Below are positions 1 through 7,155 of a stretch of 32,000 nucleotides of DNA, one piece after another (within the stretch, counting starts at the first letter, position 1; each line of letters opens with the position of its first letter). A model generated the notes under the pieces. It saw only the letters and a program-made list of their open reading frames with translations, did not search any database and was not told the DNA's origin. Made by a program: the position numbers and the translations under genes. Source of the DNA: an uncultured Chloroflexia bacterium (GTDB taxonomy: Bacteria > Chloroflexota > Anaerolineae > Anaerolineales > Anaerolineaceae). Location of the stretch: the NCBI GenBank assembly GCA_963704755.1, contig OY969938.1, positions 510,001 to 542,000 of the forward strand. The letters are read 5' to 3'.

Positions 1-1
1 A

Positions 2-37
2 GGAAAAATACACCTGGTTCTGCGCCGCATGGCCTGA
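2..37 (+). CDS. 3' end of a probable DUF1257 (Ycf35-like) gene, truncated by the window edge
   Basis: Frame 2 reads GKIHLVLRRMA then TGA (35-37). This resembles the ...LVLRRW-type C-terminus I recall for DUF1257 proteins, which usually sit directly upstream of DUF2997 genes. Only 11 codons are visible. Confidence 0.3.
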   Translation, partial: GKIHLVLRRMA

Positions 38-60
38 GCCGGTCGAGGATTTAAGTAATC

Positions 61-270
61 ATGGATGTCCAGGAAATGGAAATCACAATCAGTAAAACCG
101 GCCAGGTGGAAGTGCATGTCCGTGGCGTAACGGGGCCGGCCTGCCTCGCACTGACCCACGACCTCGAAGAGGCCCTGGGCGGCCAGGTGATCCTGCGCCA
201 GATGACCCCTGAGGCGGGAGAAACCGTAGCCAATCCGGTGGACAACCGCTTGAACCTCAAAGGTGGTTAG
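61..270 (+). CDS. DUF2997-family small protein (69 aa)
   Basis: ATG 61, TAG 268-270. The pattern EMEITISKTGQVEVHVRGVTGPACLALTHDLEEALGG matches my memory of the DUF2997 family (beta-rich small protein with one conserved Cys). It starts 24 nt after the preceding stop. Confidence 0.7.
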   Translation: MDVQEMEITISKTGQVEVHVRGVTGPACLALTHDLEEALGGQVILRQMTPEAGETVANPVDNRLNLKGG

Positions 271-276
271 CGGATT

Positions 277-846
277 GTGAGGCAAGTTCGTTTACGTGTC
301 CATCATATCGAACCGGCCAGCCGGGTCAACGGGCCGGGTTTGCGAAGTGTCATCTGGACCCAGGGATGCAGCCTGGGCTGCCCGGGTTGTTTTAATCCGC
401 AGACTCATTCGATCCAGGGCGGTGATGAGATTGCCCCACGGGATTTAGCCGACAAGGCAATTGGCTATGCGCATAATATTGAGGGGGTCACGATCAGCGG
501 CGGCGAACCGCTCCAGCAAATTCGCCCGTTGGTCGAATTTCTGCGCATTTTACGGCCCAAATCCGCACTGTCGGTGATATTATTCAGTGGCTTTACCTGG
601 GACGAAATCCAGGCCATGCCACTTGGGCGAGAAATCCCCGGCCTGGTGGATGTGCTTATTGCCGGCCGATATATCGCCGCTCAAAACGTGGGCCATAACC
701 TGACCGGCTCTGCCAACAAAACGTTCCACTTCTTTTCGGAACGCTATACTATCGCCGACTTCACCGACCTTCCCGAGGCTGAAATCATCATTCTGCCCGA
801 TGGCGGAATTATCTCCAGCGGAATCGCACCGCTCCACCTGCGCTAA
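277..846 (+). CDS. NrdG/PflA-like radical-SAM activating enzyme (4Fe-4S single-cluster domain)
   Basis: GTG 277 preceded by AAGGTGG (260-266). NGPGLRSVIWTQGCSLGCPGCFNPQTH contains the CxxxCxxC radical-SAM cluster in the sequence context of glycyl-radical activases. GVTISGGEPLQQ is a SAM-binding GGE motif. 189 aa. Confidence 0.85.
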   Translation: MRQVRLRVHHIEPASRVNGPGLRSVIWTQGCSLGCPGCFNPQTHSIQGGDEIAPRDLADKAIGYAHNIEGVTISGGEPLQQIRPLVEFLRILRPKSALSVILFSGFTWDEIQAMPLGREIPGLVDVLIAGRYIAAQNVGHNLTGSANKTFHFFSERYTIADFTDLPEAEIIILPDGGIISSGIAPLHLR

Positions 847-850
847 TCGC

Positions 851-3097
851 ATGATCGATTCTGACGAACGCAATTTACTGTCCAATATCCTTGCCTCCAT
901 CCAACCGCCCGACGGCCTGGATGAGGCTTTCCATTTAAAGCTGTTGATGAAAGGCGCATTGGCTGCCTTGCAAGCCGACGGCGCACCCGAATCGGTTTTG
1001 ACCCTGGAACAAGCCGCGATCCATGCGCCCGTGCCCGAGATTAGCATCGAAGCCCTGGCCGGCTTGAAAACCCTGGTCGAAAAGGGATCGCGCGATGCCG
1101 TCGCTGCCCTGGCCCGCCTGGCGGTATATCAGGCCAAACCGGATGCCATCGCAGCCCTCAAAGATAAATCCCTCGATCTTACCGATCGTTCCTTGCAAGC
1201 TGCATTCCTTTTTCTTTTCACCTCTCTGGATGACTACACGCAGTTCGATCCGGATTATGAAACACTGGTGGGTTTTTACCTCACGCCTGAGAACAGCACT
1301 ATCCGCGAGCGCATCCGTAATTCAGCCAGCGCCCGCCATCTGGAAAACCTGGCCTGGATTCTGCTGTCCCTGGCCGAGCCCGGGCAGGACGTCCTCGAGC
1401 TGGTCGTCGATCTCTATCCTTCGATGACCCAGGCCGAACGTGATTTGGTCCTGCGCCGTTTTGGACAGTTCGCCCTGGCCGGTGACAGCCCCTTCCGCGA
1501 AGCGGTCTGCCGCCTGGCCATCGCCAGCGAGGAAAACCCCTTCCGCCCGTTTGCTCAGCAGTACGGCCTGGAACCCGAAGATCCCATCCAACGCGCCTTG
1601 TTCTTGTTCCTGACCGAACAGTGGGAACGATACGAGACGGTTGACTTTACCCATAAATACCTGGCCACGGCCTACAGCCTGTCTGACCCGGCCCAGCGGC
1701 GTAGAATTCTTTCTCAGGCTCGTTACGCCGGACAAATCGGATGGTTGGGCCAGGTCGCCCAGCTCCAGGATGTACGCTGGATCCGCGACTTGAGCGACGC
1801 CGACTGGCAATCGGTGGTTCGCCAACTGGTCGATGCGGGCCGCTGGCCTGAATTGTGGCAATTGAGCCAATCCGCACCCGCAGTCTGGTCGGTCGAAATA
1901 TTGAGCCGGCTGGATCAATCCGCTTGGCGGCCGGCAGACGGGGACGAAAGGGCCGGCTTCGCAGAAATTCTCGAGCTGGCCAAAGCCTGTGCTGGCGACC
2001 CGCTGCTCGTTCTGCCTATGCGCACCTTGAACACACCCGGCCAGGGTATCAACACCATCTGCGCCAATTCGGACGGTTCGCGGCTGGTGTGTGGCGGCTC
2101 CGACCCGGCGCTTTACCTTTGGGACATCAACGACCGCTCCTGGTTGCCCAAAAAAGTTCTCGGTCCGTCCGCACAGACTCGCAGCCTGGCTTTTAGCCCG
2201 GACGATGAGTACATCGTCAGCGCTTCCGGGGATAACACCATCCGGGTTTATCGTCGCAAGGACCTCTCCCTGGTCAAAACACTGGATGGCCACCAGGCCC
2301 TGGTCCGCAGCCTGCTCGTTCACCCGGATTCACGTACTCTTTTCAGCGCCTCCTTCGACGGAACACTGCGTGCCTGGAGGTTTCCGCTTGGGCCACAATT
2401 GAAGCAAATCAACCCGGCCGCCGGCGAACTCTTTTCCCAGGCGCTCTTCCCGGATTCGAACCTGCTCTGCGCCGCCGGTGCGGACGGCAGCCTGCGGGTG
2501 TGGAAATGGCCCGAGGCGATCCTCCTGCGGACCTTGGAAAGCGTCGACAGCCCGGTTATTCAACTGGCCAATGGCAAGGGCCAGTTGCTGGCCGGGTACA
2601 CCCGCGCAGGAAGCCTGCAGGTATGGAACATCACCAGCGGTAAGCGGGTTAACCAGGCTCAACTGAGCGATGTTCACCTGTCTGCGCTTATCATGGATTC
2701 AAATGAAGAGTGGCTGTATACTCAAGATACGGCCGGAACTATCAATATCGTGAGCATCTCCACGATGAAGGCCGCCGCTACTCTGCCAGGCCGTTATGGC
2801 AGCGCCGCCGGGCTGGCATTATTGAAAGAGAATAATATCCTGGCCAGTGCATCTGACAGCGGCGAAATCGTATTCTGGGACCTGAGCACATTCAACCTGG
2901 TCCACCAGCCAACCAGCAGTGATTTACCCGCGTCTCTCGAGCGAATCGGCGCACTATTGACCAATTCCAATCTGGTCCCATCCAATCGCCGCTGGCTGGA
3001 GTTCATTCAAAAATTAATAGAGTGGAAATCCCGTTTCGACATTCAAATCGCCGAACCCCAGCATCTGCAAGTTGGCGAATTTGATATCCAGCTCTGA
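851..3097 (+). CDS. Large helical-repeat + WD40 beta-propeller protein (748 aa)
   Basis: ATG 851 lies 4 nt after the radical-SAM stop and is preferred over the overlapping ATG at 800. The N-terminal ~400 aa are alpha-helical/HEAT-like. The C-terminal half has repeated WD40-type blades (LYLWD, IRVYR, LRAWRF, LRVWKW, LQVWN, IVFWDL). The tail is RFDIQIAEPQHLQVGEFDIQL. Confidence 0.85.
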   Translation: MIDSDERNLLSNILASIQPPDGLDEAFHLKLLMKGALAALQADGAPESVLTLEQAAIHAPVPEISIEALAGLKTLVEKGSRDAVAALARLAVYQAKPDAIAALKDKSLDLTDRSLQAAFLFLFTSLDDYTQFDPDYETLVGFYLTPENSTIRERIRNSASARHLENLAWILLSLAEPGQDVLELVVDLYPSMTQAERDLVLRRFGQFALAGDSPFREAVCRLAIASEENPFRPFAQQYGLEPEDPIQRALFLFLTEQWERYETVDFTHKYLATAYSLSDPAQRRRILSQARYAGQIGWLGQVAQLQDVRWIRDLSDADWQSVVRQLVDAGRWPELWQLSQSAPAVWSVEILSRLDQSAWRPADGDERAGFAEILELAKACAGDPLLVLPMRTLNTPGQGINTICANSDGSRLVCGGSDPALYLWDINDRSWLPKKVLGPSAQTRSLAFSPDDEYIVSASGDNTIRVYRRKDLSLVKTLDGHQALVRSLLVHPDSRTLFSASFDGTLRAWRFPLGPQLKQINPAAGELFSQALFPDSNLLCAAGADGSLRVWKWPEAILLRTLESVDSPVIQLANGKGQLLAGYTRAGSLQVWNITSGKRVNQAQLSDVHLSALIMDSNEEWLYTQDTAGTINIVSISTMKAAATLPGRYGSAAGLALLKENNILASASDSGEIVFWDLSTFNLVHQPTSSDLPASLERIGALLTNSNLVPSNRRWLEFIQKLIEWKSRFDIQIAEPQHLQVGEFDIQL

Positions 3098-3146
3098 TTC
3101 ACACGGGGATTAAACAAGCTAACCGTATTTCCACTGTGAGGTTTCA

Positions 3147-4424
3147 TTGAAGATTCCAAAAATCTGGTCGAGCCCTCCCGGCTCAGACCCTGTTCAAAAG
3201 AAGAATTATCTCAACTCCCAGGTTGACGCGATCGGCGTTGCGTTTGGGAACGCCGCCACGCCTTTTTTACCCGTATTTCTAACCCGCCTGGGTGCAAGCG
3301 CTTTCGAAGTAAGCCTGCTGACTTCCATGCCGGCCATGGCCGGCTTGTTGTTGACCGTTCCATTGGGCCAATTCCTGCAAAACCAGAAGAATGTTGCCCC
3401 CTGGTATACGTCCACACGCACGATTTCACTCCTTTTCTACGGTTTGACCGGCGCTTTGGCGATATTTTTACACGGCAACGCCTTGATCATTGGCATCCTG
3501 GCCATTTGGGCATTGGCCACTGTGCCCCAGGCTGTGGTCAACATCACCTTTTCTGTGGTCATGAACGCTGTGGCCGGCCCGCACCTGCGCCTGGACCTGT
3601 TGATGCGGCGCTGGTCGATTTTAGGGGTGACCACCGCGGTCATGTTCCTGGTCACCGGCCAGATTTTGGAACGCATCCGTTTCCCATTGAATTACGAGAT
3701 TGCTTTCCTGATTTTAGGCCTGGGCGGATTTATCAGCTATTATTTTTCGTCCAAAATACACCTGGGTGATATTCAATCTCACCGCCAAGCAACACGCTTG
3801 AAGATGCGCGAGCAGCTCAAGGAATACATGCGGCTCGTCAGCCGCGAAAAACCTTTCCAAACTTTCGTCTTGCGACGGTTTGTGGTGCTTTCGGGTTCAT
3901 CTTTGATCTTGCCCATCTTCCCGCTCTATCTGGTCAAGGTTGTCCATGCCAGCGACGCGTGGATCGCGATCATCAATACCGTCCAAACGGCAATCGTGAT
4001 CCTGGGTTATTTCTTTTGGACCAACCAGTCCCGCCACCGCGGGACCCGCCCGGTGCTGCTCTGGACCACCTTTGGCACCGCGTTCTATCCCATCCTGGTC
4101 GCCTTTACCCAAAGTGCCGCGGTGATCACCGTCATCGGCGGGTTGTACGGAATTTTTCTGGCCGGCCTGAACCTGGTTTTCTTCGATGAATTGATGAAAA
4201 CCGTCCCAACCGAATACAGCTCCACTTTCGTGGCCCTGGCCCAGGGTATCCAGTATTTTTCATCCATCCTGGCGCCCATATTGGGTACGATCATCGCGGA
4301 TCAAGTCAGCCTGTCGGCTGCTTTGATCACCGGAGGCACCCTGCAATTAATTGGGTTCGCTATGTTCTTCTTTGGCAAACCGGCTGCATCGATGGTGCCG
4401 GCTAAGAACTTGATCGAAGGATAA
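3147..4424 (+). CDS. MFS transporter
   Basis: TTG start with GTGAGG 6 nt upstream. 425 aa with about 12 hydrophobic segments in two 6-TM halves joined by a charged loop (RQATRLKMREQLKEYMRLVSREKP). Confidence 0.8.
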   Translation: MKIPKIWSSPPGSDPVQKKNYLNSQVDAIGVAFGNAATPFLPVFLTRLGASAFEVSLLTSMPAMAGLLLTVPLGQFLQNQKNVAPWYTSTRTISLLFYGLTGALAIFLHGNALIIGILAIWALATVPQAVVNITFSVVMNAVAGPHLRLDLLMRRWSILGVTTAVMFLVTGQILERIRFPLNYEIAFLILGLGGFISYYFSSKIHLGDIQSHRQATRLKMREQLKEYMRLVSREKPFQTFVLRRFVVLSGSSLILPIFPLYLVKVVHASDAWIAIINTVQTAIVILGYFFWTNQSRHRGTRPVLLWTTFGTAFYPILVAFTQSAAVITVIGGLYGIFLAGLNLVFFDELMKTVPTEYSSTFVALAQGIQYFSSILAPILGTIIADQVSLSAALITGGTLQLIGFAMFFFGKPAASMVPAKNLIEG

Positions 4425-4425
4425 A

Positions 4426-5151
4426 TCAGGTGATTAATTCATCCGGCAGGAACGATGTCCGGTTATGGTAAACCATAGAAACACCTTCGTTGAAAAAGTC
4501 AAACCGGCTGATCGCGCAGTTGTTCATCTCGAACCACATCTTCGGAGAGGCTTCCATATTCAAAATAGACCCAACCAGGTGGTTATAGAAACCCCCGTGG
4601 CTGAAAAATGCTACCCGGTCCTCGCTTTTGCCGTGCTTTTCTAACAGCCAGGCCAGAACCCGCCTGCCGCGCTCTGGCCGGCTTTCCCTGACCTCGAAAG
4701 GCCGGTTCCACCACCCCGCTCAATTCAAACCCTCCGGGAGAATAAGGCGCGGAAAAGCCTCTCTCAATTGCCGGGGAGTTTTTCCGGGTTGGCCAACCAG
4801 CTCGCCGGTAGAGGGATCTTCCAGGTAAATTCCGCCCCCTTCGTAGATATCGGCCAGGCCGTAAATCGGCAGGTCCAATCGTTCGGCAACCTGATTGGCT
4901 GTGGCAAGGGCTCGCCACATCAAACTGGAATACAGGTGAGTCAGTTGGAAGCCCCTGGCGTTGGCCGGGTCATGCAACAGATAACTCTTTTGGGTAGCCG
5001 TACCGGAAGACAGGTAACCGGCCAATAATTCTGCTTGCTCGACACCGAGTGGTGAAAGAATGGGGTCTTCTGAACGGTTCACTTCTCTGCCCGTCTCAAC
5101 CCACAATCGGTTATTCTCGGATTGTCCGTGACGAATGTAATAAAGCTGCAT
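4426..5151 (-). pseudogene. Histidine phosphatase (phosphoglycerate-mutase-like) family gene interrupted by an in-frame TGA
   Basis: The N-terminal 143 aa carry the RHG motif (YYIRHGQSENN). TGA at 4720-4722 (minus strand) is followed in the same frame by 97 more codons, AGWWNRPFEV...AFFSHGGFYNHL...LPDELIT, with a stop at 4426-4428. That part holds the second catalytic His (SHGG). I verified the frame codon by codon. Confidence 0.85.
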
Positions 5152-5366
5152 AATCTTTCTTGTCGCTCCTCCGCCCGTACAGTTACCGGCCTGTTTTACT
5201 GGAAAAGACTGAGAAGCTGCCTTCTATGGCGAATTCAATTTTTGTGGTTCCGTTTGGGTCTCAGGAAAAACCCAAACCCAATTATTATACCTAAATAAAA
5301 CGCAACTAATCGGCCTTCCATTAAAATTCCCCGATTCCCAAACCGGCCTGAGCAGTAAAAGCAGGT

Positions 5367-5375
5367 TGGTACAAT
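5367..5375 (+). promoter_or_regulatory. Candidate extended -10 promoter element (TGgTACAAT)
   Basis: TGGTACAAT lies 33 nt upstream of ATG 5408. No convincing -35 was seen. Confidence 0.3.
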
Positions 5376-5407
5376 CCCTGGCTCAAACTGACGTTAAAAA
5401 TAAAAGC

Positions 5408-6133
5408 ATGAGCCAGATTACCCTCCAGTTTTTCGGCGCATTACGCTATTTCTTGCCGGCCAGTCGGGCCGGTGGTCCTTTCGATTATGCCTTCGACCAG
5501 AAAATCTCGATCAAGCACATCATCGAATCGTGCGGCGTGCCTCACCCGGAAGTCGGAGTAATCCGGGCGAACGATAAACCGGTGGATCTGTCTTATCATG
5601 TCCAACCCGGCGATTCGATCCTGGTTTTCCCCATCGAAACCGGTCAGGTCGAGTCCACTGAGCCGGCCCGTTTCGTTCTGGATAATCACCTGGGTAAGTT
5701 AGCCGATTACTTGCGCCTGCTCGGTTTCGACACCCTATACCATTCCGAATGGGATGACGAGCAACTCGCCCAGGTCGCCTTCGACCAGTCCCGCATCCTG
5801 CTCACCCGCGACCGTGGGTTGTTAAAACGCAAGATCGTCACGCGCGGATATTGTGTGCGCCATGATCTGCCCGACGACCAGGTCGAAGAAGTCATCCGCC
5901 AATTTGGGCTTACCGGCCAGGTCACCCCTTTTATTCGCTGCCCGCGTTGCAATGGGCTCCTCGCCAGTGTTGAAAAAAGTGCTATCATAGACCGGTTGCA
6001 GCCTCTCACCTGCCGCTTTTACGACGAATTCACCCAATGCCAGGATTGTGGCCAGATTTACTGGAAAGGATCCCACTACCAGCGTATGCAGCCCTTCATC
6101 GAACGATACAGCCCACCCGGAGCAGTGAAATGA
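5408..6133 (+). CDS. Mut7-C RNase domain protein with N-terminal ubiquitin-like (Ub-Mut7C) domain
   Basis: MSQITLQFFGALRYFLP...PGDSILVFP is a ThiS/MoaD-like beta-grasp. FVLDNHLGKLADYLRLLGFDT...LLTRD is the PIN-like Mut7-C core. C-terminal Zn ribbon: CPRCNG...CQDCGQIYWKGSH. ATG 5408 is preferred over TTG 5366, which lies inside the putative promoter. Confidence 0.85.
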   Translation: MSQITLQFFGALRYFLPASRAGGPFDYAFDQKISIKHIIESCGVPHPEVGVIRANDKPVDLSYHVQPGDSILVFPIETGQVESTEPARFVLDNHLGKLADYLRLLGFDTLYHSEWDDEQLAQVAFDQSRILLTRDRGLLKRKIVTRGYCVRHDLPDDQVEEVIRQFGLTGQVTPFIRCPRCNGLLASVEKSAIIDRLQPLTCRFYDEFTQCQDCGQIYWKGSHYQRMQPFIERYSPPGAVK

Positions 6134-7155
6134 CGGCCGGGCCTATTCTGCCGGTCGGAAAACTCCCTGCTGAGTTATTAGCCCAATTGATCGCCTCCTT
6201 GCCTTCGCAGGGAGAACGGGTAGCTTTAGGCCCGGGCATCGGCCTGGACTGCGCCGTACTCGAATTTGGAGATACCTGCCTGGTATTGAAAGCCGAGCCG
6301 ATTACCTTCGCCAGTCAAGAGATCGGCTGGTACGCCGTCCAAATCGCAGTCAACGATATCGTCACCACCGGAGCCGTTCCACGCTGGATGATGTTAACTG
6401 CTTTGCTGCCAGAAGGCAAAACGACACCCGAATCTGTGGCCGAAATTAGCCGCCAGGTAGCCAAGAGTTGCCGGGAATTAAGTATCGCCCTCATCGGCGG
6501 CCATACCGAAATCACTTACGGCATCGACCGGCCGATCCTGGTGACCAACATGATCGGGGAAGTCGCGCGTAAGGGCCTGATCACTCCACGCGGTGCCCTG
6601 CCCGGCGACCATTTGCTGCTGACCAAAGGCATCCCGATTGAAGCAACGGCCTTGCTCTCCCGTGAATTTCCCGAGCGGCTGGCCGGCATCCTTAGCCCGC
6701 AGGAAATCGCAGAGGCCCAGGGGTTCTTGTACAAACCGGGCATCAGCGTGCACCTGGACGCGCAGATCGCCGCCGCCAGCGGCGGTGTCCATGCCATGCA
6801 TGATCCTACGGAAGGCGGCCTGGCCACCGCATTGTGGGAGCTGGCCACGGCCAGCCAGCGCAGCCTGAGAGTCGATTTATCCGCAGTTCCCATCCCGCCT
6901 CTCTCGGCTAAGGTCTGCCAGGCCTTTGGCCTGGACCCGCTCGGGACGATCGCTTCGGGGGCATTGTTGTTAGCCTGCGATCCGCAAAAATCCGAGCGCA
7001 TCTTGAACGAGCTGCACCAGCAAGGGATTGCCGGCTCGATTATCGGTGAAGTGGCCGAGGGCCCGGCCAATGTCATCGCCAGGTGCGAGACCGGCTGGGA
7101 ACCGCTAAAAAAATATACCCGGGATGAGATCACCCGAGTGTATGAAAAACCATAA
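6130..7155 (+). CDS. AIR synthase-related (PurM/HypE/SelD superfamily) protein
   Basis: ATG 6130 overlaps the Mut7-C stop (ATGA). GPGIGLDCAVL, AVNDIVTTGA and GGHTE are typical PurM-fold ATP-binding motifs. There is no N-terminal Cys/Sec loop as found in true SelD. Confidence 0.8.
   Translation: MTAGPILPVGKLPAELLAQLIASLPSQGERVALGPGIGLDCAVLEFGDTCLVLKAEPITFASQEIGWYAVQIAVNDIVTTGAVPRWMMLTALLPEGKTTPESVAEISRQVAKSCRELSIALIGGHTEITYGIDRPILVTNMIGEVARKGLITPRGALPGDHLLLTKGIPIEATALLSREFPERLAGILSPQEIAEAQGFLYKPGISVHLDAQIAAASGGVHAMHDPTEGGLATALWELATASQRSLRVDLSAVPIPPLSAKVCQAFGLDPLGTIASGALLLACDPQKSERILNELHQQGIAGSIIGEVAEGPANVIARCETGWEPLKKYTRDEITRVYEKP

Follow-up and report, generated by a model that had tools for sequence, protein, structure and literature searches.

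An NrdG/PflA-type radical-SAM enzyme encoded in a conserved unit with a Ycf46-like AAA+ ATPase, an Hsp70-like protein, DUF1257 and DUF2997

In the textbook view, each glycyl-radical-enzyme activase of the NrdG/PflA clade serves a single protein partner. What, then, is the partner of an activase-type enzyme when no glycyl-radical enzyme is encoded beside it? This question is raised by a 32,000-nucleotide stretch of DNA from an uncultured Chloroflexia bacterium of the Anaerolineaceae (contig OY969938.1, positions 510,001 to 542,000; hereafter the window), which encodes at its left edge a 189-amino-acid (aa) radical S-adenosylmethionine (radical-SAM) enzyme of the NrdG/PflA type. An earlier sequence-only reading of the window had suggested that four genes there form a conserved, undescribed multi-protein system. 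We found that the genes are co-conserved across phyla and gene orders and found no description of the system, as that reading held, but the unit is larger than the four genes. Its constant partners are a AAA+ ATPase, a DUF1257 protein and a DUF2997 protein, and we tentatively propose that the radical-SAM enzyme acts on protein within a remodelling machine.

The operon and its recurrence

All four genes at the left edge of the window lie on the + strand and are tightly packed; their layout and Pfam matches agree with the sequence-only reading. The first is the 3' end of a DUF1257/Ycf35-family gene (2..37, the last 11 codons and the stop at 35-37; 125 aa in full; PF06868, 7.6e-24). It is followed by a DUF2997 gene of 69 aa (ATG 61 to stop 270; PF11211, 1.5e-16), by the radical-SAM gene (GTG 277 to stop 846; Fer4_12, 2.8e-27, and Radical_SAM) and by the gene of a 748-aa scaffold protein (ATG 851 to stop 3097; Pfam WD40 families at residues ~390-700). 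An alternative in-frame ATG at 800 would give a scaffold of 765 aa; homologues begin at the position matching 851. Pfam, NCBIfam and PADLOC-DB 2.0 models were used for annotation of the window genes.

The sequence-only reading had advised looking upstream for a AAA+ ATPase, and such a gene was indeed found. Because the Logan contig L001 is 99.9% identical to window positions 1-988, with a single 1-bp indel, it serves as the upstream continuation. The 11 residues GKIHLVLRRMA read at the window's edge are the true C-terminus of the 125-aa DUF1257 protein, whose whole gene lies on L001. Upstream of that gene L001 encodes a 530-aa Hsp70-like protein and, before it, a classic AAA+ ATPase, of which the C-terminal part is present. 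The operon thus has six genes, in the order AAA+ (Ycf46-like, Cdc48/FtsH-type), Hsp70-like, DUF1257, DUF2997, radical SAM, and helical plus WD40 scaffold, and the last four of them lie in the window. The indel of L001 falls inside the radical-SAM gene and splits its open reading frame (ORF) there; it probably reflects a misassembly or a frameshift at strain level.

For a neighbourhood survey with the 189-aa protein as query, the best 80 of at least 592 relatives from a scan of one genome per species were taken with their flanks, and 81 loci were scored. ORFs were called in all loci, and profiles for the six families were built from the window, L001 and a Thermanaerothrix locus (L002). Partners were counted within 9 kb of the radical-SAM gene, and the counts are lower bounds, many contigs being short. 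The first DUF1257 profile gave hits in other frames over AAA+ genes, which were false and came from over-extended ORFs in GC-rich genomes, and it was replaced by a rebuilt one. The DUF2997 calls of nine GC-rich loci and the DUF1257 calls of five, which the refined profile had missed, were supplied by hand from the first-pass listing; that listing predates the rebuilding of the DUF1257 model. At least one of AAA+, DUF1257 and DUF2997 was present in 52 of the 81 loci, two of these core families in 43, all three in 35, and all six families in 17. The arrangement is thus not a one-off. Since rare families recur beside the radical-SAM gene in dozens of unrelated genomes, it is far beyond chance, and the six genes are one conserved unit.

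The gene order differs between lineages. Chloroflexota have AAA, (scaffold), Hsp70-like, DUF1257, DUF2997, radical SAM and scaffold, and in every locus of this phylum the radical-SAM gene is followed by a scaffold orthologue. The order in Planctomycetota, Verrucomicrobiota and Actinomycetota is DUF1257, DUF2997, radical SAM, AAA, a second DUF1257, one to four scaffolds and Hsp70-like. Desulfobacterota and other deltaproteobacteria encode an AAA-Peptidase_M41 fusion (712 aa), a short DUF1257-like protein, a DUF2997-like protein of 58-62 aa, the radical-SAM enzyme and an Hsp70-like protein of 888 aa that carries helical repeats at its N-terminus; a WD40 gene is lacking in this form. An archaeal-labelled metagenome bin, in which contamination is possible, contains WD40, AAA, DUF1257, DUF2997 and radical-SAM genes. 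Such variation of the order argues for selection over inherited synteny. The edges of the block are clean in Streptomyces rishiriensis, where the six genes lie at the extreme chromosome end bounded by unrelated genes, and in one deltaproteobacterial contig. In nearly every module locus DUF2997 stands immediately upstream of the radical-SAM gene, with a gap of 6 nucleotides (nt) in the window and in Paenibacillus and an overlap of 4 nt in L002 and 13 nt in Streptomyces.

The sequence-only reading had emphasised the WD40 protein as a possible partner or substrate of the enzyme, with the two small DUF proteins as possible accessory subunits. The survey reverses this picture. AAA+, DUF1257 and DUF2997 are the constant partners, and the WD40 protein is the variable and most dispensable part of the module; nothing in the data shows it to be the substrate. 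Besides the deltaproteobacterial form, its gene is missing from the plasmid versions of Paenibacillus, Paenarthrobacter and Bacillus, and in Calothrix a TPR protein replaces it. Tandem scaffold paralogues, up to four, occur in Spirillospora and Actinomadura.

Plasmid relatives of the enzyme are more distant (31-38% identity), and the plasmids of Firmicutes and actinobacteria bear reduced forms of the module. Paenibacillus polymyxa M1 pPPM1a encodes AAA, DUF1257, DUF2997, radical SAM and two unknown proteins; Paenarthrobacter pC encodes AAA, an unknown protein, DUF2997, a helix-hairpin-helix protein and radical SAM; a Bacillus cereus plasmid encodes radical SAM, an unknown protein, a helix-hairpin-helix protein, AAA and DUF2997; and a Calothrix plasmid encodes Hsp70, a 1316-aa TPR protein, radical SAM, an unknown protein and AAA. 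The helix-hairpin-helix proteins, of a DNA-binding type, replace the Hsp70-like and WD40 genes on the B. cereus plasmid (L091, 7090-7830) and on Paenarthrobacter pC (L093, 5105-5989). Polaromonas naphthalenivorans pPNAP02 (L089, 1-7621) has a different, conflict-like context: a large AAA protein, an 821-aa PIN-domain protein, an unknown protein and a ClpB-like AAA_2 protein precede a 38%-identical enzyme.

A change of partner is seen in 16 loci, mostly of Myxococcota, in which a TldD/TldE-like pair (~600-660 aa each) lies directly upstream of the radical-SAM gene instead (L033, L035, L041, L045, L047-L050, L052-L054, L056-L058, L065 and L067). Several of them also encode a protein nearby that consists of an Hsp70 nucleotide-binding domain only. 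Because these enzymes nest as one clade within the family in a rough neighbour-joining tree, the TldD/TldE context looks like a later change of partner.

The enzyme and its partner proteins

The cluster motif of the 189-aa protein reads VNGPGLRSVIWTQGCSLGCPGCFNP, and the codons of its predicted [4Fe-4S] ligands, C31-x3-C35-x2-C38, occupy 367..390 on the + strand. The three cysteines, an NGPGxR loop and SGGEP are invariant across 18 aligned family members. The protein has the marks of the glycyl-radical activase clade, namely CX3CX2C, the GGE motif and the N-terminal (D/N)GPGxR loop, and shares with the NrdG/PflA activases the Fer4_12 fold family and small size as well. In the PflA complex structure 3cb8 the loop equivalent to NGPGxR is reported to contact the peptide. 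The family profile finds the PflA structures 8fo0/3c8f in the PDB at E ~1e-19. There is a single cluster motif, and a SPASM/twitch auxiliary cluster domain is absent from the 189-aa enzyme.

Unlike the known NrdG/PflA activases, the enzyme falls below every family cutoff. Its top NCBIfam match is NrdG TIGR02491 (97.7 bits, 6e-28, residues 8-149), the cutoff of which is 126.1 bits; NrdG2, NrdG3, PRK11121 and other activase models score much further below their own cutoffs. YjjW (TIGR04041) matches at 2e-13, and QueE matches are weak (E 0.003-0.03). A family-specific C-terminal extension of ~40 aa, with invariant Y157, D161, P166, E169, G176, G182 and P185, is absent from the 154-position NrdG model. 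The enzyme also occurs in aerobes, among them the actinomycetes Streptomyces, Actinomadura and Dactylosporangium. Phage proteins that are true NrdG, annotated beside NrdD, are at most 36% identical to it.

The sequence-only reading had called the enzyme an orphan, and the wider survey agrees. No NrdD/PFL-like glycyl-radical enzyme is encoded in the 32-kb window, where Pfam or purpose-built models were run on the 11 largest of the remaining ORFs. None recurs in the 81 loci, in which AAA+, Hsp70-like, WD40 and TldD/E are the only large recurrent families, and the C-terminal glycyl-radical fingerprint has no recurrent instance there. The surveyed enzymes therefore differ from NrdG/PflA activases in having no adjoining glycyl-radical enzyme and no partner with RVxG[YFW]. 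Orphans of the AmmeMemoRadiSam and YjjW types are comparable as activase-clade members that lack a known glycyl-radical partner and are precedents for other contexts; they differ in being other subfamilies with other partners, and the present enzyme scores far below their cutoffs. A profile search against 1.84 billion cluster representatives (50% identity clusters) yielded 6391 proteins at E<=1e-10, of which 938 reach E<=1e-30; by sequence the family is a large, separate branch of the activase clade. Long homologues were considered as fusion proteins and rejected, their extensions being merely low-complexity or mis-called.

The AAA+ protein has a single active cassette, nearest to the D2 domain of p97/Cdc48 (1e-48), with Walker A GIPGTGKS, Walker B IWIDEME and arginine fingers. 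Its pore loop 1, SLVGESE, has Leu in the usual aromatic position, and its N-terminal domain of ~230 residues gave no match. The Hsp70-like protein has no helical lid; its alignment with DnaK/Hsc70 starts in the nucleotide-binding domain and extends into the beta substrate-binding domain. Its C-terminus is FEVTFDIDANKRLLVTARD, which we take to resemble the last strands of the DnaK substrate-binding domain. Catalytic motifs of both the radical-SAM enzyme (CX3CX2C and SGGEP) and the AAA+ ATPase (Walker A/B and arginine fingers) are intact.

DUF1257 has the strongly conserved motifs MSHF(S/T)xIKT, DIGFRK, ADWxG and QRYAY and no cysteine. Its AlphaFold2 model is good (predicted local distance difference test, pLDDT, 89; predicted template-modelling score, pTM, 0.79) and has no significant fold match in the PDB (best E 0.04, template-modelling score, TM, 0.32), nor did the sequence profile find anything there. 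DUF2997 is predicted as a beta-hairpin plus helix with invariant G14, C28 and G40 and a nearly invariant L39. The confidence of its model is moderate (pLDDT 64), which would fit a subunit that requires a partner. The C-terminal Gly-Gly of the window's DUF2997 was considered as a ubiquitin-like tail and rejected, since it is not conserved.

In the scaffold protein, an N-terminal region of ~390 aa without a Pfam match (residues 1-390) is followed by the WD40 beta-propeller (residues 390-703, 2018..2950 on the + strand, approximate limits from Pfam stretches) and a conserved tail (2987..3097, + strand) ending in WLEFIQKLIEWKSRFDIQIAEPQHLQVGEFDIQL and the stop. The tail is common to paralogues of distant phyla. 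Its consensus over ~40 scaffold C-termini (L002-L087) is R[FY]R[FY]DIE, 8-10 residues, then (G)E[FY]DIE[LI]; the Streptomyces rishiriensis tail is a degenerate form. This shared tail is a candidate for a common docking element on divergent and sometimes multiplied adaptors.

No specific NCBIfam or PADLOC model matched any part tested. PADLOC-DB 2.0 gave zero matches for DUF2997, the radical-SAM enzyme and DUF1257, and its matches to the other proteins were weak or partial (AAA+ to IetA, by generic AAA similarity; Hsp70-like to PDC-M61B; WD40 protein to HEAT-ARM_XIII).

Related modules and adjoining genes

The sequence-only reading had tentatively placed the two DUF genes beside a AAA+ gene in a stress-responsive cyanobacterial operon. 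This link is correct. Geminocystis herdmanii encodes DUF1257, DUF2997 and AAA (507 aa) with no radical-SAM gene, and its DUF1257 is 53-55% identical to that of the present organism. In Synechocystis, slr0373-slr0374(ycf46)-slr0376 is an operon induced by multiple stresses, and ycf46 mutants are defective in CO2 utilisation (PMC7496141). This operon is equated with the DUF1257/DUF2997 set through the identity of ycf46 and the Geminocystis arrangement only, not through the sequences of slr0373 and slr0376. The present locus, with a AAA+ protein of ~510 aa, DUF1257 and DUF2997 co-encoded (via L001), has the composition of the ycf46/ycf35/DUF2997 module. The cyanobacterial and plastid versions have the same three core families, whereas the radical-SAM, Hsp70-like and WD40 genes are lacking in the cyanobacterial ones. 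A conserved cluster DUF2997-ycf35-fed7 has also been described. Its [4Fe-4S] ferredoxin, Fed7, has a DnaJ-like protein as a binding partner and in photosynthetic eukaryotes forms a fusion with a DnaJ domain (PMC4284462). Together with the present module, this links the two small proteins twice independently to the Hsp70 system and to a [4Fe-4S] protein.

The Geminocystis set (L085, 4372-8035) is flanked and interrupted by toxin-antitoxin genes (HigB/helix-turn-helix, Zeta toxin) and adjoins Tn3-type transposase genes. Prochlorococcus phage P-SSM2 (L094, NC_006883.2) carries adjacent DUF2997 (PSSM2_178) and DUF1257 (PSSM2_179, 41% identical) genes at 2302-2881, between a carbamoyltransferase gene and a DNA polymerase gene. 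The DUF2997-DUF1257 pair is also present in P-SSM5 and several marine virus single-cell assemblies. This pair of T4-like cyanophages could be auxiliary host-like genes or a decoy. On Treponema succinifaciens pTRESU01 (L095, 5001-5408) a DUF1257 gene lies within a phage-tail/baseplate cluster.

The FtsH ternary systems described by Kaur et al. in 2020 (PMC7159879) resemble the module in an FtsH-type AAA+ protein with an apparently inactive N-terminal half, in beta-propeller/helical proteins, in an accessory radical-SAM enzyme and in enrichment in multicellular bacteria. They differ from it in their defining components, a MoxR ATPase and a vWA protein, in their radical-SAM enzyme, which has been assigned to the Memo-AMMECR1-associated and not to the NrdG-like type, and in having no DUF1257, DUF2997 or Hsp70-like gene. 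By Pfam labels neither MoxR nor vWA is present in the complete blocks L002, L087 and L088, and cluster analysis revealed no further conserved family. No literature was found that links DUF1257, DUF2997, ycf35 or ycf46 with a radical-SAM enzyme, or the ycf genes with Hsp70 or WD40 proteins, most subscription journals lying outside the search; a search for NrdG with an anti-phage role found nothing on the present system.

Downstream of the operon in the window are an MFS transporter gene (3147-4424) and a histidine-phosphatase gene (4720-5151), as in the Thermanaerothrix locus. The MFS family clusters in just nine loci, and we read both genes as lineage synteny outside the module. At 5366-7155 on the + strand a Ub-Mut7C/Mut7-C RNase protein adjoins an AIR-synthase-fold protein (ThiL/HypE/SelD-like). 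The two are also adjacent at 2314-4073 of the Thermanaerothrix locus, beside a 405-aa radical-SAM protein, and may be a separate conserved pair. The 11 ORFs scanned outside the operon encode MFS, His_Phos, Mut7-C, AIRS-like, PrsW, MreB, CrtC-like, MacB/FtsX, CorA and response-regulator proteins, the MacB/FtsX permease being the biggest of the ORFs outside the operon. In positions 1-4600 a terminator scan gave no excess over shuffles, and a promoter scan gave 6 sites against a shuffle mean of 2.6 (standard deviation 1.9), none usable.

A possible mechanism and its alternatives

Filed conservatively, the system is an activase-clade enzyme with dedicated co-encoded protein partners, grafted onto a ycf46 module. 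Beyond this, we consider it possible, at somewhat short of an even chance, that the enzyme is protein-directed and works inside a AAA+/Hsp70 remodelling machine. AAA+, DUF1257 and DUF2997 would be an old protein-remodelling core, standing alone in cyanobacteria, which in other phyla would have recruited an enzyme of the glycyl-radical-activase clade. Known members of this clade abstract hydrogen from a protein backbone loop and not from a small molecule; for that reason we propose that the enzyme would abstract hydrogen on a protein held by the complex, to give a glycyl or other C-alpha radical, a cross-link or a cleavage. Unfolding, presenting or recycling this protein would be the task of the AAA+ and Hsp70-like ATPases, and the WD40, TPR or helical-repeat proteins may be exchangeable adaptors that choose clients or signals and dock via the shared tail. 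DUF2997, the neighbour constantly encoded upstream, is the likeliest candidate for direct binding to the enzyme. A protein-processing theme recurs in the Cdc48/FtsH-type AAA+, the M41 fusion, the TldD/TldE swap and the Hsp70-like proteins. That the AAA+ unfoldase, the Hsp70-like ATPase and the WD40/TPR adaptors bring an activase-type enzyme to clients, which it marks, cross-links or cleaves, as a radical branch of proteostasis or immunity on top of the ancient Ycf46/Ycf35/DUF2997 core, is the bolder form of this proposal, and we regard it as possible but on balance unlikely. The cyanobacterial data and the stable synteny within Anaerolineae speak for a role in stress proteostasis or redox sensing.

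Several observations weigh against a protein-directed enzyme in a remodelling machine. No substrate was identified among the module proteins; the glycyl-radical fingerprint R[VIT]xG[YFW] is not conserved in any co-encoded partner family; and no fusion of the enzyme with any partner was found. Cyanobacterial and phage DUF2997 proteins, which occur without the enzyme, retain the invariant Cys and Gly residues, and these are therefore not enzyme-specific. Cys28, once a candidate for the enzyme's target, is weakened by the same fact. Furthermore, 13 of the 81 loci show no partner nearby, several of them on short contigs: in two Obscuribacterales loci the radical-SAM gene is followed by a scaffold only, and the 11 others are scattered in the tree among module-linked sequences. 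A small-molecule substrate, as for the related QueE, would also be compatible with the sequence.

How probable are other explanations? That the protein is an ordinary NrdG with its NrdD elsewhere in the genome, in a gene context of no functional meaning, would agree with its best named match and with the label of anaerobic ribonucleotide reductase activating protein given to homologues by the Joint Genome Institute (JGI), yet it can hardly be so: the curated NrdG score is missed, no nrdD lies nearby in the 32-kb window or the 81 loci, the 40-aa extension is conserved, aerobic actinomycetes have the enzyme, and the linkage to DUF2997, DUF1257 and AAA+ outlives the changes of order across phyla. 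Small-molecule chemistry of a QueE-like kind, or the production of a signal, with chaperone genes that merely regulate or assemble the enzyme, is improbable. QueE is likewise a small radical-SAM enzyme of the Fer4_12 group and no protein substrate could be pinpointed, but the similarity to NrdG/PflA exceeds that to QueE by many orders of magnitude, the NGPGxR loop at the N-terminus is invariant, and cluster analysis of the loci found no co-conserved metabolic genes. We think it quite improbable that the module matures a product like a ribosomally synthesised and post-translationally modified peptide, with DUF2997 as a precursor or carrier that the enzyme would modify and the AAA+ protease or TldD/TldE would process. 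A small protein is indeed encoded just upstream of the enzyme, the Myxococcota context recalls microcin B17 processing, and an M41 protease is fused to AAA+ in one form. However, DUF2997 is a folded domain that is uniformly conserved without a variable core and exists in cyanobacteria and phages without the enzyme; moreover, the cluster motif of the enzyme is single, SPASM and twitch domains are missing from it, and no exporter or immunity gene is conserved according to the same cluster analysis.

More weight is due to an anti-phage or conflict system, in which repeat proteins would sense an invader, the AAA+ and Hsp70-like ATPases would act as a switch and the radical-SAM enzyme as effector. 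We hold this to be rather unlikely, and it could be combined with the remodelling mechanism. The system is distributed patchily, with a preference for bacteria that are filamentous or developmentally complex, gene order is shuffled, scaffold paralogues occur in up to four tandem copies, and the periphery varies. The S. rishiriensis block sits at a chromosome end, plasmid versions lie beside integrases, transposases, an HNH nuclease and a DNA methyltransferase, and the related Polaromonas enzyme sits with a PIN nuclease and two ATPases. The cyanophage pair could be a decoy, and the whole theme resembles NTP-dependent conflict systems (PMC7159879). On the other hand, PADLOC models give nothing beyond generic AAA similarity, the chromosomal neighbours are ordinary genes with synteny stable within Anaerolineae, the core triad is a conserved stress-induced cyanobacterial operon and plastid gene set, and the phage copies suit auxiliary host-like genes equally.

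In conclusion, a branch of 938 clusters at the stricter threshold without an adjoining glycyl-radical enzyme, wired to two ATP-driven chaperones, would widen the uses of activase chemistry; if true, a radical-proteostasis or immune role would be categorically new. Cultured and tractable carriers include Streptomyces rishiriensis, other Streptomyces, Actinomadura and the Paenibacillus polymyxa M1 plasmid. The module also provides a handle on ycf46, ycf35 and DUF2997, which are conserved in cyanobacteria, algal plastids and cyanophages and are among the most strongly stress-induced genes in Synechocystis.

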